From positions 8,982 through 72,981 of the forward strand of contig DUBF01000148.1 in the NCBI GenBank assembly GCA_012960465.1: DNA of 64,000 bases. Direction: 5' to 3'. How positions within the stretch are numbered: position 1 is the stretch's first letter; each line of letters begins with the position of its first letter. Of the stretch, positions 2,514-64,000 are shown one piece after another. Both the position numbers and the translations under genes were made by a program. The DNA comes from Rhodospirillales bacterium. Lineage in GTDB: Bacteria > Pseudomonadota > Alphaproteobacteria > Rhodospirillales > UBA2165. The notes beneath the pieces were generated by a model. The model searched no databases. It was not told the DNA's origin and was given only the letters and a program-made list of their open reading frames with translations.

Positions 2514-2525
2514 TTAGATGATTTC

Positions 2526-4033: not shown

Positions 4034-4050
4034 TGCACCGTTTAGGTTTA
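4034..4050. promoter_or_regulatory. Possible NtrC-like binding site in the puuE/uraH divergent promoter region
   Basis: TGCACC-GTTTA-GGTTTA against the consensus TGCACC-N5-GGTGCA; fits nitrogen control of purine catabolism but is only a partial match. Confidence 0.25.
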
Positions 4051-4126
4051 CTGAAGTACGATAAGTATTTTATGACAACAGAATTAGTATAATATCGGAT
4101 ACAATATAAAGAAAGTTGAAAAAGTT

Positions 4127-4480
4127 ATGGGATTTTTAACAACACATGTTCTTGATACGGCTCACGGGTGTCCTGCTGAAAATGTGCGTATTGGAATGTA
4201 CAGAGTGTCCAATAATATAACCGAGCATTTACTGGATGCGGTAACAAATGAAGATGGCCGTTGCGAAAATCCAGTATTGAAGGACGATGAGTTTGCTGTC
4301 GGAACTTACGAATTACATTTTTATATTGGAGATTATTTCAAAGATAAGGGTATGGATTTGGTGGCCCCAAATTTTCTTGATATTATACCTGTCCGTTTCG
4401 GCATTAGTTTGCCGGAGGAACATTATCATATACCTCTGCTTGTTTCGCCGTTTTCATATTCGACCTATCGTGGCAGTTAG
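4127..4480 (+). CDS. uraH: 5-hydroxyisourate hydrolase (transthyretin-like)
   Basis: LTTHVLD, TNEDGR and HYHIPLL motifs and the C-terminal YSTYRGS signature. Confidence 0.96.
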   Translation: MGFLTTHVLDTAHGCPAENVRIGMYRVSNNITEHLLDAVTNEDGRCENPVLKDDEFAVGTYELHFYIGDYFKDKGMDLVAPNFLDIIPVRFGISLPEEHYHIPLLVSPFSYSTYRGS

Positions 4481-4503
4481 GTTTATCAGAGGTTTTTCTT
4501 TCA

Positions 4504-5697: not shown

Positions 5698-5719
5698 CAG
5701 AAATAAGGGCGTAATCACA

Positions 5720-8339: not shown

Positions 8340-8340
8340 T

Positions 8341-9264: not shown

Positions 9265-9297
9265 TTTTATGGTTCAACATTTTATTGGAGGTAAAAC

Positions 9298-10380: not shown

Positions 10381-10404
10381 GCGTCTGATTATTCAGATTT
10401 AAAT

Positions 10405-10440
10405 TGCAGGATCTGGTCGATATGCCGGGTCCTGCAGTTT
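10405..10440 (+). terminator. Stem-loop after the substrate-binding gene (partial terminator or mRNA-stabilising hairpin)
   Basis: TGCAGGATCTGGT pairs with GCCGGGTCCTGCA (with G-U pairs) and is followed by GTTT. Confidence 0.6.
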
Positions 10441-10454
10441 GATTAAAAGGTGAT

Positions 10455-11762: not shown

Positions 11763-12014
11763 TGCTTGAACCAGTGGGCTACTTTTTATGGAGGGACAGT
11801 ATGCTTGTTTCAATTTATTTATATTAGATTTTCTGAATATAATGTTTAAGTGATTGACGAACAAATTGTTTATTTTATAAAATTTTATTACAATTTTGTA
11901 TATAGTATTTTGAGGCTTTTTGTCATAACATTATTTGGTTTGATAAATTGTTTAATTAATAAGACAGGCATCATTTTGTGTTATTTTTAATGATATTTTA
12001 ACAGGAGGTATAGA

Positions 12015-13391
12015 ATGGCGGACCAATCATCAAAGGCGGATTTACAAAATCCGGATTATACACCACCACTCAGTCAGGCCATCCCATTAGGCATCCAACA
12101 TGTACTGGCGATGTTTGCTGGTAACGTGACAGTGCCGCTTTTAATTGCGTTTGCTGCGGGTGGCCCTCAGCTCATTTCTCCATTGGTGCAAATAGCGCTT
12201 GTGGCTGCTGGTGTGGCAACCCTTATTCAGACTATAGGAATAGGCCCAATTGGAGCTCGTCTTCCTGTTGTTCAAGGAACTAGTTTTGCTTATGTCGGTA
12301 TTTTGATTGGTGCTTTAAAAAGTGGAGCAACATTGGCAGCTGTTTTTGGCGCTTCTTTGATAGGTGGTTTATTCCAGATGATTTTGGGATTTTTCATTCC
12401 CCAGATACGTAAATATATTCCACCTTTAGTTTCGGGAGTTGTGGTGTTGACCATTGGGTTTACCCTACTTCCTGTCGGTATAAAATACTCTGCTGGTTGC
12501 GGAGCATTTCCTAACCCAGCATCATGGTGTCAAGGCGGATTTGGGAGCCTTTCGAATTGGGGAATGGCTTTATTTGTCATCATAGTAACGCTCCTTATGC
12601 GTACTCAAATGAAAGGAATTTGGTCTGCTGCTTCCATATTTTTTGGTTTGGTAGTGGGCTACGTTGTAGCTATTCCATTTGGAATGGTTAATGCTGGGAA
12701 AATCGCCGCAATAGGAAAGGCCGATTGGTTTGGAATGCCGGGTCAATATTTATTTACCCTAGATTTTACAAGTCCGGCTGCCATTAGTTTGATTGGCCTG
12801 ATGATTATTATGGCATTTATCACTACAATTGAAACCGTTGGTGATATTTCAGGAATCACAATGGGTGGTGCAGACCGAGAGCCGACAGACGCTGAACTTA
12901 AAGGTGGTATAATGGCTGATGGTCTAGGGTCTGCTGTTGTCTCATTGTTTGGTGGCCTACCTAATACATCTTATAGTCAAAACGTCGGTTTGGTTTCATA
13001 TACCAAAGTGATGAGCCGCCATGTGGTTACTATTGGTGCTATATTCTTAATATTGGCCGGTCTGGTGCCAAAATTAGGCGCTTTAGTTGCTGCTATGCCA
13101 TCCCCAGTTCTTGGTGGTGCATCTGTTGTCATGTTTGGAATGATTGCGGCGGCGGGGATGAAGCTTGTAGGGCAGTCAGGTTTTAGTGCTAAAAACATGG
13201 TTATAGTGGCAATCTCTCTCGGCCTTGGACTGGGTATTTGGCAAGTCAATCAACTTGCTGGTTTGGCGAAGTATGGCCCTATTCCTTCTGCAAATTTTGC
13301 AGATTGGACGATACCATTATTAGTATCAGGTATCGTAGTTTCAGGATTAACAGCTGCTATACTAAATTTAGTCATGCCGGATGATGATTAA
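12015..13391 (+). CDS. NCS2 (xanthine/uracil/urate) permease
   Basis: GIQHVLAMF, VQGTSFAY, ETVGD and the NAT signature SYSQNVG; GGAGG RBS. Confidence 0.93.
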   Translation: MADQSSKADLQNPDYTPPLSQAIPLGIQHVLAMFAGNVTVPLLIAFAAGGPQLISPLVQIALVAAGVATLIQTIGIGPIGARLPVVQGTSFAYVGILIGALKSGATLAAVFGASLIGGLFQMILGFFIPQIRKYIPPLVSGVVVLTIGFTLLPVGIKYSAGCGAFPNPASWCQGGFGSLSNWGMALFVIIVTLLMRTQMKGIWSAASIFFGLVVGYVVAIPFGMVNAGKIAAIGKADWFGMPGQYLFTLDFTSPAAISLIGLMIIMAFITTIETVGDISGITMGGADREPTDAELKGGIMADGLGSAVVSLFGGLPNTSYSQNVGLVSYTKVMSRHVVTIGAIFLILAGLVPKLGALVAAMPSPVLGGASVVMFGMIAAAGMKLVGQSGFSAKNMVIVAISLGLGLGIWQVNQLAGLAKYGPIPSANFADWTIPLLVSGIVVSGLTAAILNLVMPDDD

Positions 13392-13482: not shown

Positions 13483-14061
13483 TTATCTTTGTGGCTGCTT
13501 CATTTTACCATCCCACCGTGGTACGGTATCAACCGTAATATTGAACTGATCAAGTACACGCATAACGATGTGGTCTACCATGGCCTCTATCTTTTTAGGA
13601 TGATTATAAAAAGCCATCATCGGTGGCGCGATGCTAACGCCCATGCGCGCGAGTTTCAGCATGTTTTCCAGATGAATTTGATTGAGTGGTGTTTCACGAG
13701 CCACTAATACCAGCTTTCGCTGTTCTTTGATGATTACATCTGCGGCACGGTGGATCAGATGGGTGCCCTGTCCACTTGAGATAGAGGCAAGGCTTGCCAT
13801 TGAACACGGAATTACAACCATACCTTCTGTGCGGAATGAGCCTGAAGAAACGGCAGCTCCCATATCTCCAGGACCATAATAGACATCAGCCATTGCTGTA
13901 ACTTGGTCGTAGGTATAACTGGTCTCATGTTCGAGTGTCTGTTGCCCCCACTTGCTGATAATTAAATGTGTTTCAACGTTGGTTCCATTCAATATTTCCA
14001 GTAGTCGAACGCCTAGAATTGAACCTGTTGATCCGGTTATACCAATAATAATTTTTTTCAT
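13483..14061 (-). CDS. ubiX: Flavin prenyltransferase
   Basis: IIIGITGSTG, SSGSF, PCSM, RAADV..KE.RKL and RETP motifs; ATG at 14061. Confidence 0.92.
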   Translation of the reverse strand: MKKIIIGITGSTGSILGVRLLEILNGTNVETHLIISKWGQQTLEHETSYTYDQVTAMADVYYGPGDMGAAVSSGSFRTEGMVVIPCSMASLASISSGQGTHLIHRAADVIIKEQRKLVLVARETPLNQIHLENMLKLARMGVSIAPPMMAFYNHPKKIEAMVDHIVMRVLDQFNITVDTVPRWDGKMKQPQR

Positions 14062-14077
14062 AAAAATACCATAAATT

Positions 14078-15061
14078 TTAAACTCTTGCGCCTTTTCCTC
14101 CGGCACTCGGTTTGGTTGTGGTTTTGGATCCCTCAAAATTCATGCCGAATTTTTCCGGAGGGTTGGGACCCCACAAATAGAAACCAACATCCATAGGCCA
14201 ATCTCTCGGTGTCCAGGCTGCGTCATCGGCGATGTAATCCATATCTGCAAAATATTCACATAGACCTTCATGTGGGTCGCGTATATACCAAAAGAAGTTG
14301 GATCCCAAGGCATGACGGCCTAGTCCCCAGCCATTACGGTAGCCTTTCTCAAGCATTCCTTGACCACCAAGGCCTACATGGTCAATGTTATCAACCTCAA
14401 AGCTTGCATGATGAAAACCGGTTCTATCAGTTTGAAGGAAGCCAACGGTATGGTGGTCGCTTCCACCAGGTGGTCGTAAAAAGGCAATTAAACCTTCACT
14501 GGAGTCTGTTAATATTAGGCCCATTACATTTGTATAAAAGGCTATTTTTTTTTCAAGGCTTGTCGTAAATTCCACCATGTGACCAAGCCTATGTGGTTCA
14601 GGCTTTGTCTCATATGAAATACTGCCCTTTTTATTTACACGGTCATAATGACCTGGACCATTCGCCTGAAAGGCTTCGTGAGGGATTGAGGGTGTTAAAC
14701 CACCCTTGGAAGGAGCGGGATCGCTGATATTAACGTTATAAATATCCCCTTCAAAATCCTCAAACCAGATGCCGTCGTATGGCACATCTTTTGGGCAGTC
14801 TATTTCTTTGGCAAGATTACTTTTATCAATATTACTCTTAATAGTTATCAATCCTTCTTCATCAGCACCGTAAGAGAGGTGATGAAGTTTGCGCTCAGAA
14901 CCCTCGGTTAAAACAATTTGATCTTGTTCGCGACCAACACAACGCATGATTGCCCGGTTTTCAATTTCTTCACCGATCAGTCCAAAATCTTCATAGAATT
15001 TTTGCTGTACCGGAACATCTGGAATAATGAGGCCCATATGATGAAAATGTTTTACACTCAT
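14078..15061 (-). CDS. VOC-superfamily extradiol (catechol 2,3-type) dioxygenase-like protein
   Basis: Two-domain VOC with RLGHMV, DHH, GFHHASFEV and GLGRH..GSNFFWYIRDP....EY (His/His/Glu metal triad). Confidence 0.82.
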   Translation of the reverse strand: MSVKHFHHMGLIIPDVPVQQKFYEDFGLIGEEIENRAIMRCVGREQDQIVLTEGSERKLHHLSYGADEEGLITIKSNIDKSNLAKEIDCPKDVPYDGIWFEDFEGDIYNVNISDPAPSKGGLTPSIPHEAFQANGPGHYDRVNKKGSISYETKPEPHRLGHMVEFTTSLEKKIAFYTNVMGLILTDSSEGLIAFLRPPGGSDHHTVGFLQTDRTGFHHASFEVDNIDHVGLGGQGMLEKGYRNGWGLGRHALGSNFFWYIRDPHEGLCEYFADMDYIADDAAWTPRDWPMDVGFYLWGPNPPEKFGMNFEGSKTTTKPSAGGKGARV

Positions 15062-49261: not shown

Positions 49262-50338
49262 ATGAAAGTGGAGCCAGTTGTGCGTTTTGGCATTCAATTT
49301 TTTCCAGATCAACGGGAAGATGAAAAATCTCCAGTGCAATATTACGATGAAGCCATGCATCTCGTCGGTCTTTGCGACGAATATGGGTATTCTCATGTTA
49401 GAACTGTTGAGCATTACTTTCACCATTGGGGGGGGTATAGCTCAAATCCAATTATCTTTCTGACAGCGGCGTGTCAGCACACTAAGACAGCAAGAATGGT
49501 AACGGGCGCTGTTTTGCCGGCATTCAACTCACCTCTGAAACTTGCGAGTGATTTATGTATGCTTGATGCGTTTTCGAACGGCCGGTTGGATGTGGGATTT
49601 GCTCGGGCTTTTTTACCGCAAGAGTTTCGGCATTTTGAGGTCGATATGGACGAAAGTGTTGAACGTTTTGAAGAAGGTATTAAACAAGTTCAGTTGCTTA
49701 TGGAGGGAGAGAACGTTACCTCTAAAGGTAAATTCCATAGCTTTGAAAATGTTACTACGATGCCTCGGCCGACGCAGTTACCACGTCCAAATTTCTACGT
49801 AGCAGCAGTTGGTACGCTAGCATCATTTGAACGTGCGGGTAAGATGGGGCATTGGATCATGGCAATTCCCGGAGTTGGTTCTGATCCCATTGCGCTTTTG
49901 GAAACGTATAGAGATGCATGGACGAAAGCCAAGCATCCTGGCAAGCCAAAGATGATGATGGCCGTTTTTATGTTTTGTCATGAAGATGGAGACGAAGCAC
50001 GGCGGATTGCAAAACCGCATATAGAGGGTCATTTTGCGCAGATTGTGGATGCGATGATGGAATACACTGATGGCTCACCTTCAAACGCTTACAAGAACTA
50101 TGATGTATTAAGGAAAAAAATAGCTACTCAAACATTGGAAAGCCAAATTGAAAGTGGGGCAGCTTTTGTTGGTAACCCATCGGAGATAATCAAGCAGTTG
50201 AAAGTTTTTAATAAGGCTTGTGGAGGTTGTGATGAATTATCGCTTCAAGTAAACCCCTTTGGATTGAAACTTAATGCGGCTGAGGCGTCCATGAGACTTT
50301 TTGGTACAGAAGTGATGCCTTATTTTAAAAATAATTAA
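49262..50338 (+). CDS. Luciferase-like (LLM) flavin-dependent monooxygenase
   Basis: VEHYF, LDAFSNGRLDVGFAR, PRPTQ.P.P and FVGNPSE motifs. Confidence 0.88.
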   Translation: MKVEPVVRFGIQFFPDQREDEKSPVQYYDEAMHLVGLCDEYGYSHVRTVEHYFHHWGGYSSNPIIFLTAACQHTKTARMVTGAVLPAFNSPLKLASDLCMLDAFSNGRLDVGFARAFLPQEFRHFEVDMDESVERFEEGIKQVQLLMEGENVTSKGKFHSFENVTTMPRPTQLPRPNFYVAAVGTLASFERAGKMGHWIMAIPGVGSDPIALLETYRDAWTKAKHPGKPKMMMAVFMFCHEDGDEARRIAKPHIEGHFAQIVDAMMEYTDGSPSNAYKNYDVLRKKIATQTLESQIESGAAFVGNPSEIIKQLKVFNKACGGCDELSLQVNPFGLKLNAAEASMRLFGTEVMPYFKNN

Positions 50339-50351
50339 AAGGAATGATACT

Positions 50352-51362
50352 GTGGATACATTTCTAAAAGAAATTCAGGCACACGATTTGGCTCCTTTGT
50401 GGGAGGTTTATGAGAATATTGTTTTGAATGAACCGTCGCGATCTGAACCATCAATAATATGGAAGTGGACAGAAATGCTGCCTCTAATCGAAAAATCAGC
50501 TGAGCTTGTTCAAGGAAGTCACGCAGACCATCGTGTGCTTATCCTTAAAAACCCTAAACTCGATGGCAAAATGGCAACAACCACTAATATTCTAGCAGCC
50601 TTTCAATGCGTGAACCCGGGCGAGGAAACTTCTCCTCACCGTCACACTCCAGCCGCTACTCGAGTAATTATAGAAGGATCTGGTGGCAGTACGTTTGTTG
50701 ATGGTAAACGGTGTGAGATGTTTGAGGGAGATCTCATCATTACGCCTAATTGGACGTGGCATTGCCATAAAAACGACAGCAGTAAGAGAATTATCTGGTT
50801 AGATGTACTAGACATTCCATTGGTTGGTTCGTTAGACGCAGTTTTTAGCGATATGAAAATGCAACCAGAAAATCATTTCCCGGATAATAGGGCTATGATA
50901 TCTGATGATGCGTATGCAGGAGGAGGACTTGTACCTGTTAGTAATCTTATGCATGTCAATCATTCACCTCGTTTACGCTACGCCTTTGAAGATGTTCTCG
51001 TTGCGATAAAAAATACGCCTAAATCAGATGATGGCATCCAGTCGATCAATTATACTAATCCAGTTGACGGTAGTGGCATTTTGCCAACTCATGATGCAAA
51101 AATTTGCTCTTTAGGTAGAAACATTAAAACAGCAACATTACGTTCTACCGCAAATGCGGTGTGTATCGTTATAAAAGGCAATGGCTATAGTCAAATTGGT
51201 GATGTCGCTCATCAATGGGGGCCTAAAGATATCTTTACGATACCCCATTGGTCATGGGCAACTCACACAGCTTCTAGTGAAGAAACGCTTCTTATTGTGA
51301 TCTCTGACCGCCAAGTTATGGAAAAACTGGGTTTATACCGTGAGGAAGCATTAGAATCTTAG
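50352..51362 (+). CDS. Gentisate 1,2-dioxygenase-like bicupin
   Basis: PLWE, RVLILKNP, HRHT, TPNWTWHCH and WLDVLDIP motifs; the second cupin lacks metal ligands. Confidence 0.85.
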   Translation: MDTFLKEIQAHDLAPLWEVYENIVLNEPSRSEPSIIWKWTEMLPLIEKSAELVQGSHADHRVLILKNPKLDGKMATTTNILAAFQCVNPGEETSPHRHTPAATRVIIEGSGGSTFVDGKRCEMFEGDLIITPNWTWHCHKNDSSKRIIWLDVLDIPLVGSLDAVFSDMKMQPENHFPDNRAMISDDAYAGGGLVPVSNLMHVNHSPRLRYAFEDVLVAIKNTPKSDDGIQSINYTNPVDGSGILPTHDAKICSLGRNIKTATLRSTANAVCIVIKGNGYSQIGDVAHQWGPKDIFTIPHWSWATHTASSEETLLIVISDRQVMEKLGLYREEALES

Positions 51363-55975: not shown

Positions 55976-56105
55976 AACCTGGCTGCTATATTAACTAAAT
56001 AATGCTAATTAAAAGCGATTAGAGAGATGTGAGAATTTTGGAAAACTTTAAGATCTTTATTCGTAAATTGTTTAACAATTAATTATCTTATATTAAGCTC
56101 AGATA

Positions 56106-56528
56106 ATGATTGAAGTTACGCCTTATATTTCACTTTCAGATAACGAGATTGAAGAGAAATTCATTCGATCACCAGGGGCTGGAGGTCAAAAAGTTAATAA
56201 GACGGCTACGTCAGTTCAGTTGCGGTTTAATGCCAAGAAAAGTTCCGCCTTAACTAGTGATTTGTTTTTAAGATTAAAACGACTAGCGGGTCAGCGCATG
56301 ACAAATTCTGGCGTTATTGTGATTACTGCGCATAAGTATTCTACACAGAAACAAAATCGTCAGGATGCGCTTCAGCGTCTAGTTAACTTGATCCGGAAAG
56401 TGGCTATTGTGCCGAAAGTGCGACGAAAGACTGCACCGACCCGGGGTTCCAATAAGCGTCGTTTGGATAGTAAACGGCAGAAAAGTAATATTAAAAAAGG
56501 AAGAGGCAGGCTCCGAAAGTTCGATTAA
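56106..56528 (+). CDS. arfB: Alternative ribosome rescue factor (peptidyl-tRNA hydrolase)
   Basis: GAGGQKVNK GGQ motif, Q..NR..A..RL and a basic C-terminal tail. Confidence 0.93.
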   Translation: MIEVTPYISLSDNEIEEKFIRSPGAGGQKVNKTATSVQLRFNAKKSSALTSDLFLRLKRLAGQRMTNSGVIVITAHKYSTQKQNRQDALQRLVNLIRKVAIVPKVRRKTAPTRGSNKRRLDSKRQKSNIKKGRGRLRKFD

Positions 56529-56569
56529 TATACTTAAATAACGCTATAATCTGTGCGGCGCACATTTCT

Positions 56570-57553
56570 TTATTTTTTTCTACGATTAAGCATTTTTTGC
56601 GAGAGTTTTGAGGCTCGGCCAGGGGTAGACCACGGGCATCTTGCAATACAAATAGCACACCCTAAAGCTTCACCAAATGTTGGTATGCATTTATCGAAAT
56701 CGACAAACCATTTATTGACACCGCGGACCATCTGTTTTTCTGAAAAAATTGCCCCGGGAGGGCATGCCTTTACACAGATTTGACAATTATTACAAAAATC
56801 TTCGGAGCCTATATCTCTCATTTGATCAGCGATCAGTGGCATATCTGTAGTTACTGCTGAAAGTCTAAAAGATGAGCCAAATTCACCATGTATCAAAGAG
56901 CCATGCTTGCCGAGTGTACCCATTCCTGCGTCAATAGCGGCCGGCACCATGCTTAGTGCCGATGCAAACGGCCCCGCCCATGGTTTAGCAAAGTACCCCT
57001 GACTGAGTATAAAATTGGTTAGTTCTCGGCAAACCCTAGCGGCACGATTATATTGACGCGCGACTTCAACCGGCGATTCTGGTTTCTCGAGACTTGCCGG
57101 TACTTTGTCGAGCTCCGCATGATCCATGGTAACACCAACAATAATAACCCAAGGTTCATCTATCCGATATCCTTCGTAGATATAATGTGGATCCATTTTA
57201 GTGATACGGACATCATCACCTTCATGGCAGAGGGTAAATTCTTTAATTGCCATTACCCATTCTTCGGCAGATTTTTCAATAATAGTTTGTGCTTTTTCAA
57301 TTGTTTTGGGGCCACGTGCTGCATTACTACTGTAGTGCTCAACAATTGCGGGAGATCGTCTCTGGATATCAACAACTTCAGTTTGTAATTCGCCAAAGGC
57401 GTGTTTGTCGTGAGGATGCCAAAAAAAGGGGGATGGGCTTCTAATCTCCGTTTCGTTTAGGCCATTTACCGTATTACCAGAAACATCTGGAAAAAGTGCT
57501 TTAAAATCATCAGCAGTTTCAGGTAGTTTTTTTGGTTTTTGTAGATCTGTCAT
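56570..57553 (-). CDS. Reductive dehalogenase-like cobalamin/2x[4Fe-4S] protein
   Basis: AIDAGMGTLGKHG.LI..EFG..FRL..VTTDMPL cobalamin-binding segment; FCNNCQICVKACP and C-x9-CAICIARCP clusters; no TAT signal; ORF open to 57580. Confidence 0.75.
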   Translation of the reverse strand: MTDLQKPKKLPETADDFKALFPDVSGNTVNGLNETEIRSPSPFFWHPHDKHAFGELQTEVVDIQRRSPAIVEHYSSNAARGPKTIEKAQTIIEKSAEEWVMAIKEFTLCHEGDDVRITKMDPHYIYEGYRIDEPWVIIVGVTMDHAELDKVPASLEKPESPVEVARQYNRAARVCRELTNFILSQGYFAKPWAGPFASALSMVPAAIDAGMGTLGKHGSLIHGEFGSSFRLSAVTTDMPLIADQMRDIGSEDFCNNCQICVKACPPGAIFSEKQMVRGVNKWFVDFDKCIPTFGEALGCAICIARCPWSTPGRASKLSQKMLNRRKK

Positions 57554-57722
57554 GGCGCTATAGTGAAGATGTAGGACCAACCCATCAATACCTAATTATA
57601 TTTTTTAATATTCATAGTTTTTATTATTGTGGTTGTGATAATCAGTTTTCTAGGTTAAAAAACAGAATATTGGTTACTAAAATCGAATTATTCGACGAGC
57701 TAATTAAATAAAGGTTCTTTAT

Positions 57723-58493
57723 TTAACAGCTATGAATTTTCATTCTATCCTGCCATTCTATGCCTTTGCTCCAGGCTAACATGTTTTTAGCATCAGGTTC
57801 TTTTTTATCAATATATAAGACTGTTCGCCATGCTAGGCTCAGCATGCAAGACGTTACTGGCGGCCCCTCCCAATTTTTGCAATCTAGAATAGGCTGTAGT
57901 GTTGGCATTCCCGTGCCAAGCATCACGATTGCATCTATTTCTTTATTTTGGAGAGAGTATAAGGCTTCACTGCTACTATCTGCGCGAATACTATAGATCG
58001 GATGAAAATCGCTTTCATCATTATAAGTACTGGCAACTTCGGAAACTTCGAAACCAGCATTTTGCCAATAGCTTACACTGATCTTTGTTAAAGAAGCTGG
58101 GTATGGTGAAACTAATCCAATTTTTTTTGCGCCCAACGCATTAAATGAATCGGTTACTGCGCGCGCTGCTGTAACAAATTCGAAGCCCTTACTTTTCTTG
58201 ATTCGTTCACATATCTCGGTCTCTTTTTCTTGACCAATAAGATAGGAGGCGCCTGTGCAGCCAAAAGCAACAGCTTGTATAGGAGCATTTGCAAATTGAT
58301 CAAGTGTCACTTCAATCTGGTTCGTATAGTCAACCAGTCGATCTTCCATCTCTTTTTTACTGCTTGTTAGACGGGCATTCAGCATTGTTACGCCAGCAGG
58401 CCATAATATTCTAAACTCAGGCTCTACAGTGGTATTGGCTTGAGGTGTTAATACACCAACGAGACCACGTTTTGCATATTCTAGTTCGGTCAT
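57723..58493 (-). CDS. Asp/Glu racemase-fold protein (maleate isomerase / arylmalonate decarboxylase family), single catalytic Cys
   Basis: GVLTPQANTTVEPE, FGCTG, LVSPY and MLGTGMP motifs; ATG 58493. Confidence 0.8.
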   Translation of the reverse strand: MTELEYAKRGLVGVLTPQANTTVEPEFRILWPAGVTMLNARLTSSKKEMEDRLVDYTNQIEVTLDQFANAPIQAVAFGCTGASYLIGQEKETEICERIKKSKGFEFVTAARAVTDSFNALGAKKIGLVSPYPASLTKISVSYWQNAGFEVSEVASTYNDESDFHPIYSIRADSSSEALYSLQNKEIDAIVMLGTGMPTLQPILDCKNWEGPPVTSCMLSLAWRTVLYIDKKEPDAKNMLAWSKGIEWQDRMKIHSC

Positions 58494-58587
58494 TTTTATT
58501 AAGTCCACTGAGTTTTAATTATCTTTAGTTTATGACATTGTTACAGGTGAAAAACCATAATTTCAATTTATGGGCAAGGTCTTTAAT

Positions 58588-59805
58588 ATGTTAAAGCAAG
58601 CTAACGAGAAACGTATTTTAATAGTTGGGGGTGGTCCTGTAGGATTATTTGCAGCGACACGTTTGGTTGACTTTGGAATTCCGGTTATACTCATTGATAA
58701 AGCCTCACAGGTTAGTACTGATATCCGCGCCTCTACAATTCACCCACCTTCCCTGGAAATGATGGCGCCTTACGGTATTACAGACGAGATACTTGAGACA
58801 GGAATTAAAGTACCGCAATGGCAAATACGTAATCACGCTACGGGTGAAAGGGTTGTTTTTGATCTTAAGCATATCGCAGATAAAACTAAGTACCCGTACC
58901 GTGTGCAGTTTGAGCAAAGTAAAATTTGTGCAATCATGGATAGGAGGCTCCAGGATAATCAGTTAGCCGATATTCGGTATGGAACAGAATTTGTGTCGTT
59001 TGACCAGAATAGCGCTGGTGTTTCAATCAATGTTAATACGGCAGCAGGACCAGATAAAATCCATGGCCAATTTTTAATTGCAGCTGACGGGGGTGCTAGC
59101 CCAATTAGGGAACAGTTAGGACTAACTTTTGAAGGATCTACGTATTCTGAGAGAACTGTGTTGGTTACAACACCCTTTCCCTTCCATGAGCATATTGATG
59201 GATTGTCGAGTGTTAGCTATTGTTGGGAAAAAAAGGGTAATTTTAGTCTCCTGCAATTACCCGACCAATGGCGAGCTAGCCTCTGTTTTCCAGAAAATAT
59301 GTCACCTGATGCTGCTTTGGCGGATGAACACATCCAAAAACAACTTCATGTTATATGTCCAATTGGCGAGCCATTCGAAATCTATGATAAGCGTGTCTAT
59401 CGTGTTCATCAACGCATAGTATCTAAATATGATCATGGTCGAATTGCTTTGGCGGGTGATGCCGCGCATATTAATTCGCCATCTGGTGGTATGGGCATGA
59501 ATGGTGGCTTACATGATGCCCATGACTTGGCAGAAAAATTAAATCAGATTTGGCTAAGTGAAGATGAGTATATTTATTTTGATCTTCTTGGTCTTTATTC
59601 GCGCCAGCGAAAACCGATTGCCGAAGAGCAAATTATTAAGCAAGCTGATGAAAATTGTAAGCGCATGACGGAGAAGAACCATGAAAAGCGGCGAAAATCT
59701 CTAGATGAATTGCTAGATATCTCGAGCGACCCTGTAAAGTGTCGGGCTTTTCTATTGAAATCGTCGATGTTTGAAGGTTTGCGCCAGGCTTCACTTATTG
59801 AGTGA
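58588..59805 (+). CDS. Class A FAD-dependent monooxygenase (aromatic hydroxylase family)
   Basis: VGGGPVG, AADG and AGDAAHINSPSGGMGMNGG fingerprints; alternative start 58570. Confidence 0.88.
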   Translation: MLKQANEKRILIVGGGPVGLFAATRLVDFGIPVILIDKASQVSTDIRASTIHPPSLEMMAPYGITDEILETGIKVPQWQIRNHATGERVVFDLKHIADKTKYPYRVQFEQSKICAIMDRRLQDNQLADIRYGTEFVSFDQNSAGVSINVNTAAGPDKIHGQFLIAADGGASPIREQLGLTFEGSTYSERTVLVTTPFPFHEHIDGLSSVSYCWEKKGNFSLLQLPDQWRASLCFPENMSPDAALADEHIQKQLHVICPIGEPFEIYDKRVYRVHQRIVSKYDHGRIALAGDAAHINSPSGGMGMNGGLHDAHDLAEKLNQIWLSEDEYIYFDLLGLYSRQRKPIAEEQIIKQADENCKRMTEKNHEKRRKSLDELLDISSDPVKCRAFLLKSSMFEGLRQASLIE

Positions 59806-59885
59806 CATTAAATATTTGGCATTTCTGCAATACGTGAAAAATAAAGGTTAGAAAATTCAACTAGTAGAAAAATAGAGTGAATTTG

Positions 59886-61151
59886 ATGGGACAAACAATA
59901 GCTGAAAAAATTATCGCAAAAGCGGCTGGTCAGCAGACTGTTAAGCCGGGTGATATCGTTACCTGTAATGTCGATCTAGCTATGATCCACGATAGTGGTG
60001 GTCCGCGCCGGGTTAAACCTTTAATGGAAAAACTTGGGGTTAGCGTCTGGGATCCAAACAAGGTTGTTTTGATTTCCGACCATTTTACTCCCTGTACGGA
60101 TGCTGAGAGCGCAAACATTCTTAAATTGACAAGAGAATGGGCAGCGGAACAGGGTATTATTAATTTTTATGATCAACAGGGGATTTGTCATGTGGTAACT
60201 CCTGAGCGTGGGCACATTCACCCTGGAATGTTTGCTGTCGGTGGTGACAGCCATTCACCGACGGGCGGAGCTTTTGGTAGTTATATGTTTGGAATTGGTG
60301 CAACTGATATGCTTGGTGTCCTTGTCACGGGTCAGACTTGGATAAAAGTGCCCGAGACTATTAACATTAAATGGTCTGGAGATTTTGGTGTTGGAATAGC
60401 AGCTAAAGATATGGCCCTTAAAATGTGTGCTACGCTCGGCATGGATGGTGGAGATTATCAGTCAATTCTGTACTCAGGTGATACAATAGAAAATTTGGAT
60501 ATGATGGAACGCATGACGTTGAGTAATATGGCAGCGGAACTCGGTGCGCAATCTGGTCTGATCGAGCCAGATGAAAAAACTGTTGATTATATTAAGTCAG
60601 TGGGAGGTGTTCCCGGCGATTGGCAGAATTTTAAGAGTGATCCAGATGCGAACTATAGCGTTTCACATGAATTTAGTGCTATAGATTTAGAACCGCAGGT
60701 AGCCGTACCACATAGCCCAGCGAATGCAGTAGCTGTTGGAGACGTTGGAAAGGATCAGATTGATCAATTTTATATTGGTGCATGTACTGGGGCTAAATTA
60801 AATGACTTGGAAATGGCGGCCTCTGTTCTCAAGGGTAAGAAAATTGCTGCTGGCAAACGTCTTACAGTTGCACCGGCCTCTTCGCGCATCCTGGCCCAAG
60901 CGATCAAGCAGGGGATAATCGAAGTTTTACTAGAAGCTGGAGCAGGTTTGTTGCCTCCTGGCTGTGGGGCTTGCGCAGGTTACGGAGTAGGTGTTTTAGC
61001 AGAGGATGAAGTTTGCCTGGCTTCAACTGCCCGGAATTTTCAAGGTAGAATGGGGGCGAGTACTTCTAAAGTGTATTTAGCATCGCCTTACACGGTTGCC
61101 GCCAGTGCGATACGGGGACATATCTCAGACCCAAGAGAGGAGCTATTATAA
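59886..61151 (+). CDS. Aconitase-family hydro-lyase large subunit (short LeuC/DmdA/HacA type)
   Basis: EKI, DH, GICH, GDSH, IGACT and GCGAC (three Fe-S Cys) and RNFQGRMG motifs; about 420 aa. Confidence 0.88.
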   Translation: MGQTIAEKIIAKAAGQQTVKPGDIVTCNVDLAMIHDSGGPRRVKPLMEKLGVSVWDPNKVVLISDHFTPCTDAESANILKLTREWAAEQGIINFYDQQGICHVVTPERGHIHPGMFAVGGDSHSPTGGAFGSYMFGIGATDMLGVLVTGQTWIKVPETINIKWSGDFGVGIAAKDMALKMCATLGMDGGDYQSILYSGDTIENLDMMERMTLSNMAAELGAQSGLIEPDEKTVDYIKSVGGVPGDWQNFKSDPDANYSVSHEFSAIDLEPQVAVPHSPANAVAVGDVGKDQIDQFYIGACTGAKLNDLEMAASVLKGKKIAAGKRLTVAPASSRILAQAIKQGIIEVLLEAGAGLLPPGCGACAGYGVGVLAEDEVCLASTARNFQGRMGASTSKVYLASPYTVAASAIRGHISDPREELL

Positions 61152-61636
61152 TGTCCAGTCGTGTTTGGAAGTTTGGAGATGATATTAATACAGATATTTT
61201 AGCACCGGGTATATACATTAAATTACCCCTAAACGAACTTGCACAGCATTGTCTTGAGTCCATTGATCCTAGTTTTGCTTCTAGGGTATGTGAAGGAGAT
61301 ATCATTGTGGCGGGCAATAATTTTGGGATGGGTTCAAGTAGAGAGCAGGCGCCTCAAGTTTTGAAGGAACTTGGTATTACTGCGGTTATAGCGGCTTCTT
61401 TTGGCGGTATATTTTATCGTAATGCTTTTAATCTCGGCTTGCCCGCGATAATTTCTAAAGATTTCACAAAAATCGCTGCAGACCATCAAATTGAACTTGA
61501 TATTAAAACTGGAAGAATTTGTAATATTACTACAGGTCAAGATTTAGTTGGAGAAAAAATACCGGAAAATTTATTGACACTTATTGAAGCTGGCGGGCTT
61601 GTGCCTTACCTGGAAAGTAACTTGAATAATAATTAA
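61151..61636 (+). CDS. Aconitase-family hydro-lyase small subunit (LeuD/DmdB type)
   Basis: FGDDINTD.LAP, NFGMGSSREQA, IFYRNA.N.GLP and AGGL motifs. Confidence 0.88.
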   Translation: MSSRVWKFGDDINTDILAPGIYIKLPLNELAQHCLESIDPSFASRVCEGDIIVAGNNFGMGSSREQAPQVLKELGITAVIAASFGGIFYRNAFNLGLPAIISKDFTKIAADHQIELDIKTGRICNITTGQDLVGEKIPENLLTLIEAGGLVPYLESNLNNN

Positions 61637-61649
61637 TTAAGGAGTGGCC

Positions 61650-62528
61650 ATGTCGCCGCAGAAAATCTTAAGAGATCGTCTCGACCAGGATAAAATTATA
61701 CTTACACCAGGTATATATGATGCTTTTGGAGCAATGATGGCTGAGCGGGCTGGTTTTGAGGCGCTTTACCTGTCCGGGGCTTCGATAGCTTATACAAAAT
61801 TAGGCCGCCCAGATATAGGACTCGTAACCTTGGACGAGTTGGCGTCTGTTGTAGGAACAATTCGTGAGCGGACAGACTTACCTACAATCGTTGATGCGGA
61901 TACGGGGTTTGGTAATGCGCTCAATGTTCAGCGCACTGTAAAACTCTTGGAGCGCAATGGTGCCTCTGGTATTCAACTGGAGGATCAGTCTCTGCCAAAA
62001 CGCTGCGGACACCTTGATGGTAAAATGCTGATAACTGCAGATGAAATGAATGGTAAAGTCAAAGCAGCTCTCGATGCGCGTATGGATGAAAATACTGTTA
62101 TCATAGCAAGGACAGATGCTATTGGGGTTGAAGGCTATGAGAGTGCCATGGATCGCGCAGTTGGTTATGTCGAGGCAGGAGCTGATGTCTTGTTTATTGA
62201 AGCTATGCAAAATACTGAACAAATTGCAGGGGCTATAAAACAATTCGGAGGCAAAGTTCCGTTATTAGTAAATATGGTTGAAGGTGGTAAAACTCCAATG
62301 GCGCCAGCTTCTGAATTGGAAGAAAAGGGTTTTTCGATTGTAATATTTCCCGGTGCTTTGGTTCGTGTGCTTGCTCATGCTGCGGAGAATTATTTTAATT
62401 CGCTACTCAAGCATGGCTCAACTTTGCATCACAAATCTCAAATGTTTGATTTTAATGAGCTAAATGAACTTCTAGGCACGGAAGAAATGCTTGAAATAGG
62501 TAATCGTTACACAGATGGTGGAGATTAA
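61650..62528 (+). CDS. Isocitrate lyase/PEP mutase-family C-C lyase (PrpB / 2,3-dimethylmalate lyase-like)
   Basis: YLSGA, DADTGFG, EDQ..PKRCGH, ARTDA and NMVEGGKTP motifs; AAGGAG RBS. Confidence 0.88.
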   Translation: MSPQKILRDRLDQDKIILTPGIYDAFGAMMAERAGFEALYLSGASIAYTKLGRPDIGLVTLDELASVVGTIRERTDLPTIVDADTGFGNALNVQRTVKLLERNGASGIQLEDQSLPKRCGHLDGKMLITADEMNGKVKAALDARMDENTVIIARTDAIGVEGYESAMDRAVGYVEAGADVLFIEAMQNTEQIAGAIKQFGGKVPLLVNMVEGGKTPMAPASELEEKGFSIVIFPGALVRVLAHAAENYFNSLLKHGSTLHHKSQMFDFNELNELLGTEEMLEIGNRYTDGGD

Positions 62529-62529
62529 G

Positions 62530-64000
62530 ATGCAAAAACTCGACCCTGTGATGCTGGCTGTCCTTAAAGGACGGTTGGAGCAAATTGCGGATGAAATGGA
62601 TGCGACGCTTTTTCGTAGTGCGTTTAATCCAATAATAGCTGAAGCTCATGATGCCAGTCATGGGCTCTACCATGCCAAAACTGGTGAGACCTTAATTCAA
62701 GGCAAGTCTGGCCTACCCGTTTTCGTTGGAGCTATGTCATTTGCGGTAAAAATGGTGATCGATAAAGTTGAAGTCGAAAATATTGTTCTCAAACAGGGTG
62801 ATGTTTTCGTATTTAACGATCCTTATGAAGGTGGAACTCACCTTTCAGATTTTAAACTCGTAAAGCCTTTCTTTCATGAGGGCGAGATTTTTTGCTTCTT
62901 AGCTTCCGTTGGCCACTGGCACGACGTAGGTGGAAATGTGCCAGGTAATTATAATCCCGTTGCAACGGAGTGTTACCAAGAAGGCATGCTAATCCCTCCA
63001 GTGTTTCTTTATAAGGAAGGTGTTCTCAATGAAGATATTATTGCAATTTTACAATCTAATTCGCGCCTACCAGGCAGTCTTTATGGTGATCTGAATGGAC
63101 AAGTTAGCGCTCTTGATCTCGGTGATCGAAGATTAAAGGATTTGCTTCAAGAATATGGTAAAGAGAAAATTACATCTGCTTTAGTTGAACTGAATCAAAG
63201 TGCTGCCAGGCTCATGGCGAGTTATATTAGTGATCTTCCAAACGGTACTTACTCGGCTGAAGATTGGCTCGACAATGATGGTATTATCGATGAGCCGCTA
63301 AAAATTGGCCTTGATATTATTATTGCTGATAACCGAATGACTTTGGATTTTTCTAGAACATCGGCTGCATGTGATGGACCAGTAAATATCTCGCGTTCTA
63401 CGTGTATTGCGTCTTGCTATGTTGCGCTTAAGCATATTTTTCGTGAGGTTCCGGCCAATGCTGGAGTGCTGGAGCCGATTGATTTTATAATTCCAGAAGA
63501 TAGCTTACTAAGTGTTGGTCGCCCAAAACCCGTTTGTGGTTATACTGAGACAATTCTTCGTGTTATCGATGTTATGTTTCAGGTGATTTCTCAAGTTGCT
63601 CCAGAAATGAGTAATGGCTGTGCATACGGAACCATCAATGCATTATCAATGGCAGGTTATCGTAAGAATGGCGTTCGCTGGGTTATGTTTTCTTTCTTTG
63701 GCGGCGGCCACGGCGGCCATCCTAATGGTGACGGCCTTAATCATGGAAATGCGCCAATTTCAACAGCCACCATTCCCCCACTGGAAATCTTGGAGGCTGC
63801 CTATCCAATCCGTTTTACCCGATGGGCCCTCAGGCCAGATAGTGGTGGGCCAGGTAAAAACCGTGGTGGTTGCGGTGCAATTTATGAGATTGAATTACTT
63901 GAAGAAAAAGCTGATGCTTTTTTGTTTGGCGAACGAGGCAAATTTGGCCCGCCCGGTGTTATAGGGGGTGAGAGCGGAGCTCTAAATAAATTTAGTTATC
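62530..64000 (+). CDS. Hydantoinase B/5-oxoprolinase-family protein (truncated by window end)
   Basis: My translation: MQKLDPVMLAVLKGRLEQIADEMDATLFRSAFNPIIAEAHDASHG...NDPYEGGTHLSD...GHWHDVGG...EG...GGGHGG...DSGGPGKNRGG; absent from the ORF track because there is no stop in the window. Confidence 0.9.
   Translation, partial: MQKLDPVMLAVLKGRLEQIADEMDATLFRSAFNPIIAEAHDASHGLYHAKTGETLIQGKSGLPVFVGAMSFAVKMVIDKVEVENIVLKQGDVFVFNDPYEGGTHLSDFKLVKPFFHEGEIFCFLASVGHWHDVGGNVPGNYNPVATECYQEGMLIPPVFLYKEGVLNEDIIAILQSNSRLPGSLYGDLNGQVSALDLGDRRLKDLLQEYGKEKITSALVELNQSAARLMASYISDLPNGTYSAEDWLDNDGIIDEPLKIGLDIIIADNRMTLDFSRTSAACDGPVNISRSTCIASCYVALKHIFREVPANAGVLEPIDFIIPEDSLLSVGRPKPVCGYTETILRVIDVMFQVISQVAPEMSNGCAYGTINALSMAGYRKNGVRWVMFSFFGGGHGGHPNGDGLNHGNAPISTATIPPLEILEAAYPIRFTRWALRPDSGGPGKNRGGCGAIYEIELLEEKADAFLFGERGKFGPPGVIGGESGALNKFSY

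Follow-up and report, generated by a model that had tools for sequence, protein, structure and literature searches.

Gene Organization of the Locus

A group of six adjacent genes closes the window (the whole stretch of DNA analyzed here, 64,000 nucleotides of contig DUBF01000148.1 from the Rhodospirillales assembly GCA_012960465.1), encoding a maleate isomerase-fold protein, a flavin adenine dinucleotide (FAD)-dependent monooxygenase, the two subunits of a LeuCD-like hydratase, a lyase with a KRCGH motif, and a hydantoinase B (HyuB) (Table 1). The original prediction, made from the sequence alone, had given these genes in this order, with the first as a racemase-fold gene, and both their positions and their family content are confirmed by the open reading frame (ORF) positions and by Pfam and NCBIfam, whose profile scores with curated cut-offs were used for the family assignment of the window ORFs. 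The last four genes are coupled by overlaps or gaps of no more than 13 base pairs (bp), as had also been noted: the LeuC and LeuD ORFs share one base, LeuD and the lyase gene stand 7 bp apart if the latter begins with the GTG at 61644 and 13 bp apart with the ATG at 61650, which is the start that agrees with the 292-amino-acid (aa) homologues, and the lyase and HyuB ORFs overlap by 14 bp, or lie 1 bp apart if HyuB begins at its sixth codon. The monooxygenase gene is separated from LeuC by 71 bp with no terminator-like site inside. The divergent gap between the isomerase-fold and monooxygenase genes, predicted at about 95 bp, measures 94 bp with the ATG starts at 58493 and 58588, and 61 bp between the longest ORFs. 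A sigma-70-like site lies within it on the plus strand (58532-58561, 10 of 12 matches); such sites are not enriched in the scanned region against shuffled sequence (21 vs. 18.0 ± 3.3), and terminator-like sites in the window region are no commoner than in shuffles.

The region is not a compositional or mobile island. This part of the original prediction was not borne out, and the label is unjustified because the guanine-plus-cytosine content runs smoothly between 0.39 and 0.46 across the window without a step, no transfer RNA was found in the 64 kb, and profile scans of the window found no integrase or transposase domain. No Rfam family matched positions 56000-64000.

Table 1. Features of the cluster at the end of the window, with the profile scores on which the family assignments rest
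Feature	Position	Strand	Evidence and remarks
Maleate isomerase/Amdase-fold gene	57723-58508	-	PF17645 46.9 bits; likely start ATG 58493, where orthologues begin
Divergent intergenic region between isomerase-fold and monooxygenase genes	58494-58587		Bounded by ATG 58493 and ATG 58588
FAD monooxygenase, group A, single-component	58570-59805	+	PF01494 187.5 bits; alternative start ATG 58588
Aconitase/LeuC-family large subunit, short archaeal-type LeuC/HacA kind	59877-61151	+	NF001614 544.8 bits, cut-off 385
LeuD/DmdB-family small subunit	61151-61636	+	TIGR02087 175.3 bits, cut-off 108.95
KRCGH lyase, PEP_mutase/ICL family	61644-62528	+	PF13714 156.5 bits, also PF00463; likely start ATG 61650
Hydantoinase B (HyuB)	62515-63999, open at window end	+	PF02538 506.4 bits, profile positions 1-477 of 519

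Conservation of the Cluster in Related Genomes

The lyase, which has thousands of close homologues in marine metagenomes with the few named ones belonging to Rhodospirillaceae, served as the anchor of a survey in which 15 homologues were aligned and one genome per species was scanned. Of the 600 matching stretches, 590 encode a relative, and the best 80 of these 590, with up to 10 kb of flank on each side, make up the sample to which all counts out of 80 refer; 47 of these loci have full 10-kb flanks, while the remaining contigs are shorter. Opposite-strand ORF clusters overlapping conserved genes, which were numerous in the high-GC loci, were treated as shadows and ignored (no Pfam match in the representatives scanned), and a 472-aa "conserved protein" of no known family was rejected as the antisense shadow of an ATP-binding cassette (ABC) transporter substrate-binding gene.

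Clustering of the ORFs places LeuC-family genes in 58 of the 80 loci, LeuD-family genes in 57, an FAD_binding_2 flavoprotein in 40, HyuB in 34, HyuA in 32, an isochorismatase-family protein in 33, a GntR/UTRA regulator in 33, a Liv-type ABC binding protein in 27, a TctC receptor in 17, and an amidohydrolase of ∼490 aa in 16. Taken together, LeuC/LeuD-family genes occur in 60 loci and a ring-opening system in 56, and the loci with full flanks (n = 47) give a similar picture for LeuC/LeuD (41), the flavoprotein (26), and the ring-opening system (39). Since this lyase subfamily adjoins LeuC/LeuD in 60 and a ring-opening hydrolase in 56 of the 80 loci, the arrangement is far beyond chance, and its core consists of the KRCGH lyase, the LeuCD-type iron-sulfur (Fe-S) hydratase, the fumarate-reductase-like flavoprotein, and a cyclic-amide ring-opening enzyme. 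The co-occurrence elsewhere that had been proposed as a check is seen for the lyase, LeuCD, and the ring-opening enzyme but not, as a rule, for the monooxygenase and the racemase-fold gene (here called the isomerase-fold gene), which lie near the core in only 5 loci. The gene set first proposed was also incomplete, as the conserved unit has in addition the flavoprotein dehydrogenase and an isochorismatase-like protein, which would lie beyond the window end.

In the closest relative, locus L001 of the survey (lyase 81% and HyuB 86% identical to the window proteins), HyuB is followed on its 3' side by HyuA, the isochorismatase-like gene, the flavoprotein, a tripartite ATP-independent periplasmic (TRAP) transporter, and a YghX hydrolase, and the operon of the window almost certainly continues past its end in the same way. 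A hydantoinase A gene had been predicted at this place, and HyuA follows HyuB in L001 and in 32-33 of the 80 loci. In Azospirillum oryzae, the genes form one co-directional operon of twelve in the order gntR, five ABC genes, lyase, hyuB, hyuA, isochorismatase-like gene, FAD oxidoreductase, leuC, and leuD. The look at the neighborhoods that had been suggested for transporters and regulators yielded TRAP, Liv-type ABC, and TctC transport genes and a HutC-like GntR regulator, and because uptake transporters and this regulator accompany the cluster in relatives, it fits a catabolic role. Both alpha- and betaproteobacteria have this combination together with the transporters and the regulator, and its carriers include abundant marine Rhodospirillaceae and roseobacters, freshwater Comamonadaceae, and soil Azospirillum, Variovorax, and Burkholderiaceae.

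Three Interchangeable Systems for the Proposed Ring Opening

The ring-opening place in the cluster is taken by one of three systems. The first is the ATP-dependent HyuB/HyuA pair with a cysteine-less isochorismatase-like protein (34 of the 80 loci), the second is the ∼490-aa metal amidohydrolase of the allantoinase/dihydroorotase/hydantoinase type (16 loci), and the third comprises two PuuE-like paralogues of the polysaccharide-deacetylase family together with a cysteine-bearing isochorismatase-family amidase (6 loci). No locus carries two of these systems and 24 carry none, and the full-flank loci divide into 25 with HyuBA, 9 with the metal amidohydrolase, 5 of the PuuE-like type, and 8 without any. 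The metal amidohydrolase holds the place of HyuBA in operons that are otherwise collinear. On a maximum-likelihood tree of the lyase, close relatives differ in the system they carry, and the well-supported branches require at least 9, at least 6, and at least 5 changes of the three system labels, counts that are approximate because some "none" labels stem from short contigs. As judged from their families, all three systems are cyclic-amide hydrolases, and the repeated replacement of one by another, unrelated enzyme at the same place is the strongest evidence that the pathway includes, as an integral part, the opening of a cyclic amide. There is thus strong comparative evidence, at the level of gene content and sequence, that a cyclic amide or imide would be opened and then passed to a maleate-type hydratase and a carbon-carbon (C-C) lyase.

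None of the three reaches the equivalog cut-off of a named enzyme. The best named model for the window HyuB is caprolactamase beta, at 242.3 bits a quarter of the cut-off of 1000, and HyuA of L001 reaches 529.6 bits against caprolactamase alpha (cut-off 1000); the metal amidohydrolase scores best with allantoinase AllB (216 bits), dihydroorotase (194 bits), and hydantoinase (172 bits), all under cut-off, and the PuuE-like proteins with allantoinase PuuE (128 and 104 bits). HyuB belongs to the hydantoinase B/oxoprolinase family by its domain and its metal residues, with its C-terminus beyond the window: the metal-site motifs H-x-x-D and H are present in THLSD and GHWHD, and E51/D54, H117, D120, and H142 are invariant in 28 orthologues. 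The spacing of these ligands is that of the carboxylase site, His/Asp metal ligands being described for CapB and acetone carboxylase in the available part of one source, which also lists caprolactamase, a Pseudomonas putida lactamase, oxoprolinases, a 5-substituted hydantoinase, and a match to N-methylhydantoin hydrolase in the HyuAB family (PMC8453981). Similarly, the PuuE-like family includes the characterized cyclic-imide hydrolases HxnM, the P. putida imidase, and BpIH according to excerpts of two papers (PMC9304392, PMC11424739), and the family of the metal amidohydrolase likewise includes characterized cyclic-imide hydrolases, namely, D-hydantoinases that act on a glutarimide, according to the listing of a third (PMC13098106).

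The PuuE-type loci, in which the isochorismatase-family amidase bears its cysteine, have a content that fits two successive C-N hydrolyses of an imide, since a second hydrolase is at hand. Downstream of PuuE-type variants of the cluster lie six paralogous genes of ∼300-350 aa in L017 (13553-19952) and four such genes in L048 (15583-20048); three of the L017 copies have no Pfam match at 1e-10, and one of these also has no NCBIfam match at 1e-3.

The isochorismatase-like protein that travels with HyuBA is of another kind. In an alignment that included triuret hydrolase and RutB together with Cys-to-Ser crystal variants, the catalytic cysteine of TrtA and RutB aligns to a glycine (GIVTNGGV), while D12 and K110 are kept. 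The glycine is also found in 4 of 4 plasmid copies, and three unrelated paralogues elsewhere in the same loci retain the cysteine. The predicted model (predicted local distance difference test, pLDDT, 90.9) has a fold nearest to BiuH, TrtA, and RutB, the biuret, triuret, and ureidoacrylate amidohydrolases, and by the alignment the protein is an amidase scaffold without its nucleophile; it would not be the half-amidase of an imide route, because the catalytic cysteine is missing. By ORF clustering, the gene stands with HyuBA in 31 of 34 HyuBA loci and is absent from all 16 metal-enzyme loci, and the three exceptions are a contig that ends just past HyuA (L009), a locus in which tblastn recovered the copy (L075), and a 3.2-kb contig (L046). 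The protein may assist in catalysis, acting on an enamine or activated intermediate, or serve as a structural partner. Prediction of a complex with HyuB returned "no answer" with a score of 0.00, which is uninformative either way.

Public annotation describes some of these genes otherwise. Copies named "cysteine hydrolase" have glycine at the cysteine position in L081 (13725-14339), L082 (8396-8998), L085 (13396-13998), and L086 (16561-17175), and the hydratase genes of the cluster are publicly named leuC/leuD with a leucine-biosynthesis Gene Ontology term; both are probably systematic mis-annotations.

The Lyase and the Hydratase

The lyase carries K119-R120-C121-G122-H123, which is the K-[KR]-C-G-H catalytic loop of the lyase branch of the isocitrate lyase (ICL)/phosphoenolpyruvate (PEP) mutase superfamily, with the cysteine as general acid. 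KRCGH is present in all 80 loci and KRCGH or KKCGH in four plasmid relatives, and the shared signature of KRCGH, N-[MI]-[VI]-E-G-G-x-T-P, and x-M-x-[DN]-F in 80 of 80 loci marks a single subfamily. Its solved relatives are PrpB (E-value 2e-57) and, with weaker matches, petal death protein (3.3e-53) and 2,3-dimethylmalate lyase (1.1e-49), the group that cleaves (2R)-alkyl- or 2,3-dialkyl-malates. The scores stay under the PrpB equivalog cut-offs (TIGR02317, 306.7 vs. 354.4; NF008455, 261.2 vs. 353). Compared with Escherichia coli PrpB, the methyl-pocket positions F184, I234, and P236 are kept, whereas T212 is changed to V (79 loci, with I in one) and R270 to F (80 of 80 loci), and all 80 loci have [FL]-D-F in place of the QTR that is conserved in PrpB. 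In PrpB, T212 and R270 are the residues that we take to bind methylisocitrate at the distal carboxylate of its succinate moiety; on this assumption, the cluster lyase would release an acid other than succinate. By these replacements and scores, the enzyme is not a true methylisocitrate lyase. It is also set apart from PEP mutase, the signature of which is E-D-K-x5-N-S, by the sequence E-D-Q-S-L-P-K-R-C-G at this place and by a TIGR02320 score of 134.9 against a cut-off of 319.55.

The large subunit of the hydratase belongs to the aconitase/LeuC-HacA family and has three candidate 4Fe-4S cysteines in IGACTG and GCGAC, presumably cluster ligands as in the motifs of the family, and the NCBIfam family of the small subunit, TIGR02087, carries the name "LeuD/DmdB". 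Both subunits fall below the equivalog cut-offs (large subunit, LEU2 423.1 vs. 610.65 and HacA_Meth 439.7 vs. 550; small subunit, leud 144.3 vs. 245.85 and HacB2 162.5 vs. 230), and these scores together with the specificity loop do not identify a 3-isopropylmalate dehydratase of the leucine pathway. The loop of the small subunit reads Y-I-K-L, as opposed to Y-L-V-Y in the solved isopropylmalate/citramalate isomerase and Y-L-R-T in homoaconitase, and its third position is K in 39 of 47 rows, R in 2, Q in 4, A in 1, and S in 1. The arginine of homoaconitase is, on our assumption, there for the distal carboxylate, and work on methanogen enzymes has associated a basic loop residue with a polar or acidic substrate side chain. 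The hydratase slot is filled by two LeuCD subfamilies among the loci, either the short type of the window, with relatives of 50-80% identity to the window protein, or a long bacterial type that is ∼32% identical.

The hydratase step may also be carried out by PrpD-type dehydratases. In Roseomonas (L086, 10601-11998), a PrpD-family gene lies directly upstream of the lyase. Similarly, plasmid pTM1 of Tistrella mobilis (L084, 10575-17599) has a variant cluster without LeuCD and without a ring-opening enzyme, in the order gntR, ABC genes, MmgE/PrpD, lyase, tautomerase, FAD oxidoreductase, two Asp/Glu-racemase-family genes, and a second MmgE/PrpD gene; the two racemase-family genes show no detectable relation to the window isomerase-fold protein at an E-value of 1e-3.

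The Flavoprotein and the Accessory Genes

The flavoprotein, which is known from the relatives, has the FAD_binding_2 fold and resembles flavocytochrome c3 fumarate reductase (E-value 2.9e-53) and urocanate reductase (2.9e-47). Against TcuA it scores 161 bits (cut-off 369), and it remains under cut-off with all models.

The monooxygenase and the isomerase-fold gene are accessory and lie outside the conserved core. L003, L007, and L058 have close orthologues of both next to the cluster, and L005 and L015 have distant ones, with identities of 50-60% and 32-35%, respectively, for the isomerase-fold protein. The two can be taken for a peripheral module that, in certain lineages, supplies the core pathway or tidies up around it. 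In L058 (2067-3279, a metagenome-assembled genome of Rhodoplanes piscinae), the monooxygenase orthologue is split into overlapping ORFs (2347-3279 and 2067-2420), which is either a frameshifted pseudogene or an assembly error. The window monooxygenase matches PF01494 over residues 15-353, reaches no NCBIfam equivalog cut-off, and has PnpA (p-nitrophenol 4-monooxygenase, E-value 2e-44) and HspB (6-hydroxy-3-succinoylpyridine 3-monooxygenase, 2.4e-43) as its best solved relatives, both over residues 13-387. This similarity and the full-length PF01494 match make it a group A enzyme of the PnpA/HspB kind, in which hydroxylation takes place para to an existing hydroxyl and the substituent is expelled. 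For the isomerase-fold protein, the best solved relatives by sequence are maleate isomerases (E-value 8e-12), and these are also the best structural matches of its predicted model (pLDDT 85.8; template modeling score 0.72-0.82; 21-23% identity). The catalytic cysteines of maleate isomerase were taken to be C76 and C194 (Nocardia enzyme) from the titles of solved mutants; by position, GCTG is found near residue 84 in 4 of 6 aligned proteins, and an invariant G-T-G without cysteine stands near residue 199.

Proposed Pathway

The reading that we prefer, at a probability of about one half, is that of a conserved catabolic operon in which a cyclic imide or lactam is opened, nitrogen is lost, and a cis-substituted butenedioate is hydrated and cleaved to pyruvate and a short acid. 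Its step order, chemistry, and substrate are proposed from the observed gene content, family membership, active-site motifs, co-occurrence, and ring-opening replacement. A small amide or imide ring, probably carrying or yielding carboxylates, would enter the cell through a TRAP, Liv-type ABC, or TctC-type transporter and be opened, in the lineage of the window, by ATP-dependent HyuB/HyuA with possible aid from the cysteine-less isochorismatase-like protein, and nitrogen would be released as ammonia. The fumarate-reductase-like flavoprotein may tune the saturation (succinate type vs. maleate type) of the four-carbon diacid backbone, after which the cis-substituted butenedioate (a substituted maleate) would be hydrated by the LeuCD-like Fe-S enzyme and the resulting substituted malate split by the KRCGH lyase in a retro-aldol-type cleavage to pyruvate and a short carboxylic acid. 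The lineage-specific monooxygenase and isomerase-fold protein probably convert a related precursor to the ring compound or interconvert isomers. An imide is preferred to a hydantoin because a five-membered imide yields a cis (maleate-type) diacid, which is the substrate type of LeuCD enzymes. Of the degradation first predicted, via a cyclic amide or imide and an alkylmaleate, the ring opening that feeds a maleate-type hydratase and lyase has stood up, by virtue of the three interchangeable hydrolases, and the gene set has to be changed; the earlier interpretation is partly supported overall, and the observation behind it is confirmed.

A number of points weigh against this pathway. For an imide, the loss of the second C-N bond is unexplained because two of the three variants have no second hydrolase: the metal-amidohydrolase loci have no amidase in the operon, and the cysteine is missing in 32 of 32 in-cluster isochorismatase-like copies. 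The second bond could nevertheless be accounted for if its loss is spontaneous or if the ring is an enamide. Among the 24 loci without a ring-opening gene, 16 lie on contigs without full flanks, but 8 have full flanks. The flavoprotein is missing from half of the 80 loci, and its reaction may run in either direction. The TRAP and TctC transporters argue for a carboxylated substrate and not for a neutral alkyl-maleimide. As to the substrate side chain, the signals conflict: the conserved loop lysine of the small subunit resembles the homoaconitase arginine and speaks for a charged side chain, whereas the lyase lacks the two PrpB residues that presumably bind a distal carboxylate. Finally, the MmgE/PrpD-family dehydratases beside the lyase in some relatives hint at a hydroxy-tricarboxylate intermediate.

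Alternative Explanations

A ureide ring is an unlikely substrate. Such a ring, for example, a 5-substituted hydantoin or a dihydropyrimidine- or dihydroorotate-like carboxylate, would be opened to an N-carbamoyl amino acid and decarbamoylated, with the flavoprotein, hydratase, and lyase disposing of the amino-dicarboxylate skeleton. A racemase-fold gene is a usual companion of a hydantoinase, and the isochorismatase-like proteins are most like the ureide amidases TrtA, RutB, and BiuH. Hydantoin-type archetypes exist in all three ring-opening families, namely, N-methylhydantoinase and 5-substituted hydantoinase for HyuAB (in the available part of PMC8453981), AllB, and PuuE; however, the family scores are all far under the equivalog cut-offs. 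The metal-amidohydrolase loci are moreover without a carbamoylase, the HyuBA-linked isochorismatase-like protein is without its catalytic cysteine, and it is hard to see what a LeuCD-type hydratase and an ICL-type lyase would do once an N-carbamoyl amino acid has been formed.

Likewise unlikely is a tricarboxylate skeleton, such as a methyl- or homo-analogue of tricarballylate, aconitate, or methylcitrate, with the ring as its lactam or imide and pyruvate and a dicarboxylate as products. The corresponding roles, namely, a flavoprotein akin to tricarballylate dehydrogenase, a hydratase akin to aconitase or homoaconitase, and a lyase akin to methylisocitrate lyase, are equally doubtful. The flavoprotein matches TcuA as well as soluble fumarate reductases, though at 161 bits it stays under the TcuA cut-off of 369. 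The TctC-type "tricarboxylate" receptors in 17 of 80 loci point the same way, but such receptors bind many substrates. The K of the small-subunit loop stands at the position of the homoaconitase R, and MmgE/PrpD-family proteins lie beside the lyase in Tistrella and Roseomonas. PrpB is the top-scoring named model for the lyase, which is nevertheless under the PrpB cut-off and has exchanged QTR for [FL]-D-F and T212 for V across the 80 loci; in addition, the ordinary aconitase and isocitrate lyase make a dedicated set needless for tricarballylate itself.

The original prediction had put forward, as a speculation, monopyrrole debris of tetrapyrroles as the substrate. A widespread, dedicated cluster that mineralizes such debris from the photo-oxidation of chlorophyll, haem, or phycobilin, in the form of alkyl- or carboxyalkyl-maleimides or pyrrolinones (e.g., methyl-ethyl-maleimide or hematinic acid), is compatible with the findings but rather more doubtful. 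Any of the three hydrolase systems would open the ring, ammonia would leave the dialkylmaleamate almost or wholly without the aid of an enzyme, and the dialkylmaleate would be hydrated and then split to pyruvate and a short acid. Conversion of pyrrolinones to the imide would fall to the monooxygenase, and stereo- or geometric isomers would be dealt with by the isomerase-fold protein. Dialkylmaleamic acids hydrolyse readily on their own, and because of this, a tetrapyrrole origin would account for the lack of an amidase as well as for the lost cysteine of the isochorismatase-like protein.

An aerobic route for nicotinate or a hydroxylated pyridine, in which a ring hydroxylase is combined with the dimethylmaleate hydratase and dimethylmalate lyase chemistry of Eubacterium barkeri and the ring is a reduced pyridone that is opened hydrolytically, is distinctly improbable. 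DmdAB and Dml belong to the nicotinate route of E. barkeri, and the steps that link 2-formylglutarate to dimethylmaleate there (the B12 mutase, isomerase, and dehydratase) are absent. The best solved relatives of the monooxygenase include HspB of nicotine/pyridine catabolism, but the monooxygenase occurs in just 5 of 80 loci. The cluster on the plasmid of Sulfitobacter sp. S190 lies 3 kb from nicotinate-type genes; however, this is 1 of 5 plasmid contexts read, and no nicotinate-type family is among the 45 most widespread ORF clusters of the 80 loci, the last of which is found in 7 loci. A saturated ring is opened by a cyclic imidase and then an amidase in the fungal nicotinate route, as an excerpt of one paper has it (PMC9304392).

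The plasmid of Sulfitobacter sp. S190 (L082/L083, record 54869-92816) has the cluster between this nicotinate-type module, annotated as a xanthine-dehydrogenase-family hydroxylase, 6-hydroxynicotinate reductase, and an amidohydrolase, and the bacteriochlorophyll/photosynthesis genes bchB, bchN, bchF, and ppsR.

A chance neighborhood of housekeeping genes (LeuCD of the leucine pathway, PrpB of the methylcitrate cycle, and 5-oxoprolinase) is very improbable and was rejected. Public names such as leuC/leuD "leucine biosynthetic process" and "isocitrate lyase/PEP mutase family protein" and the ilvIH and ilvC genes 2-5 kb upstream in the window would suggest it, but all three enzymes are under the equivalog cut-offs, the genes are translationally coupled, neither prpC nor prpD is present in the window, and the explanation is contradicted by the recurrence of the same combination with transporters and regulator in alpha- and betaproteobacteria. 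Least probable of all, and also rejected, is the biosynthesis of a pantaphos-type phosphonate by PEP mutase, a LeuCD-like dehydratase, and a flavin monooxygenase, for although this is superficially the gene set proposed for the hvr cluster in the available part of PMC7858074, the PEP mutase signature is missing, scans of the window and L001 found no phosphonomethylmalate/homocitrate synthase, the hvr monooxygenase is by the same excerpt an NtaA homologue with its own flavin reductase while that of the window is of PF01494, and phosphonate biosynthesis would have no use for uptake transporters and HyuAB.

Comparison with Known Systems

The proposed pathway has its closest parallels in systems that share parts of it. 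The DmdAB and Dml enzymes of E. barkeri are likewise a short LeuC/LeuD-type hydratase that acts on a cis-dialkyl-butenedioate and an ICL-superfamily lyase that releases pyruvate and a short acid; this comparison is by description, as the sequences of the window pair were set against the TIGR02087 "LeuD/DmdB" model and the solved dimethylmalate lyase. In E. barkeri, the pair works together with a molybdenum hydroxylase, an enamidase, a B12 mutase, and an isomerase, to which the cluster pair is not joined, whereas in the cluster it is joined to ATP- or metal-dependent cyclic-amide hydrolases and a flavoprotein and the hosts are aerobic proteobacteria. The lyase of the window also scores nearer to PrpB than to the dimethylmalate lyase (2e-57 vs. 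1.1e-49). The tail of the methylcitrate cycle offers a second parallel, with an MmgE/PrpD dehydratase (present in some relatives of the cluster), an aconitase-family hydratase, and a PrpB-like lyase with the methyl-pocket positions; the cluster differs in the changes at PrpB positions 212 and 270 in 80 of 80 lyases, in having no methylcitrate synthase, and in being coupled to ring-opening hydrolases and uptake. The name "dimethylmalate lyase" has itself been applied to a methylcitrate-cycle gene in the accessible portions of two papers (PMC9804861, PMC8471276).

Similarly, CapAB, N-methylhydantoinase, and 5-oxoprolinase share with the cluster a two-subunit HyuA/HyuB enzyme with a conserved metal site. 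In the creatinine route, the hydantoinase is likewise followed by an isochorismatase-family enzyme, N-carbamoylsarcosine amidase. The cluster enzymes reach 530 and 242 bits against 1000, however, the companion has glycine for cysteine, and what lies downstream is a hydratase and a lyase instead of an aminotransferase or sarcosine oxidase. The fungal nicotinate route (HxnM imidase and HxnN amidase) and the bacterial imidases and half-amidases resemble the proposed pathway in the hydrolytic opening of a ring followed by an amidase, and in Aspergillus a PF01494 monooxygenase and a ring-saturating enzyme precede the imidase, as far as the available part of the source shows (PMC9304392). The products of these cyclic-imide routes, hydroxyglutarate or succinate, enter central metabolism directly, whereas the cluster adds an Fe-S hydratase and a C-C lyase, and because these dedicated enzymes follow the ring opening, its carbon skeleton would be branched (alkylated). 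No precedent for ATP-dependent ring opening was found in the literature on imide metabolism. The flavoprotein has the same FAD_binding_2 fold as TcuA, the soluble fumarate reductases, and urocanate reductase, but it has neither a cytochrome nor an FMN (flavin mononucleotide) domain and, in the loci read, no TcuB partner.

The original statement that no described pathway has this gene set agrees with the open full-text literature, where no description of the combination was found; this is weak evidence, as most subscription journals lie outside the search. For example, none of these enzymes appears in the available part of a paper on riboflavin catabolism (PMC12746152). The cluster would represent a new architecture of a pathway, assembled from enzyme families that are already known, and its nearest precedents have parts of it only. 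If the proposed pathway is true, an entire catabolic pathway is hidden under misleading public names such as "leuC/leuD, leucine biosynthetic process", "cysteine hydrolase", "oxaloacetate decarboxylase", and "carboxyvinyl-carboxyphosphonate phosphorylmutase". The threefold swapping of the ring-opening step would be a natural experiment that fixes one reaction type without biochemistry, and three enzyme scaffolds for the same cyclic-amide hydrolysis would be of interest for lactam and imide biocatalysis. A cysteine-less isochorismatase-like protein that travels with an ATP-dependent enzyme likewise raises a new functional question for its family. The identity of the substrate would define a sink for nitrogen-containing ring compounds in dissolved organic matter, and several cultured carriers exist.

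Other Genes of the Window

The rest of the window holds genes of urate catabolism, cobalamin synthesis, and housekeeping. Nearest to the cluster, a gene for a 336-aa Fe-S protein like reductive dehalogenases and epoxyqueuosine reductase (56570-57580; TIGR02486, 98.7 bits vs. 160) is co-oriented with the isomerase-fold gene and lies 142 bp downstream of it; since it has no counterpart in the 80 related loci, it was excluded from the cluster. A luciferase-like monooxygenase gene followed by one for a gentisate 1,2-dioxygenase-like bicupin (270 bits, cut-off 442) occupies 49262-51362, and between this pair and the catabolic cluster stand miaA, ilvIH, ilvC, and arfB, with ilvIH and ilvC at the distance of 2-5 kb given above. 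The cobalamin genes (15696-41693) are unrelated to the catabolic cluster and comprise CbtA, a CobT-type phosphoribosyltransferase, CobS, CobU, CobW, CobN, CobO, CobQ, CobD, and CbiX, as well as precorrin methylases, a CbiG fusion, CobK, and CbiD. On the minus strand at 13483-15061, a gene for a flavoprotein of the UbiX/Pad1 kind (PF02441) overlaps one of the glyoxalase/dioxygenase superfamily. A complete-looking set for the conversion of urate to ureidoglycolate spans 148-13391, with allantoicase, 2-oxo-4-hydroxy-4-carboxy-5-ureidoimidazoline decarboxylase, a PuuE-type gene of the polysaccharide-deacetylase family, 5-hydroxyisourate hydrolase, and a Urate_ox_N membrane protein, and beside these are found a Bmp/PnrA-type nucleoside ABC transporter, an amidohydrolase, and a xanthine/uracil permease.

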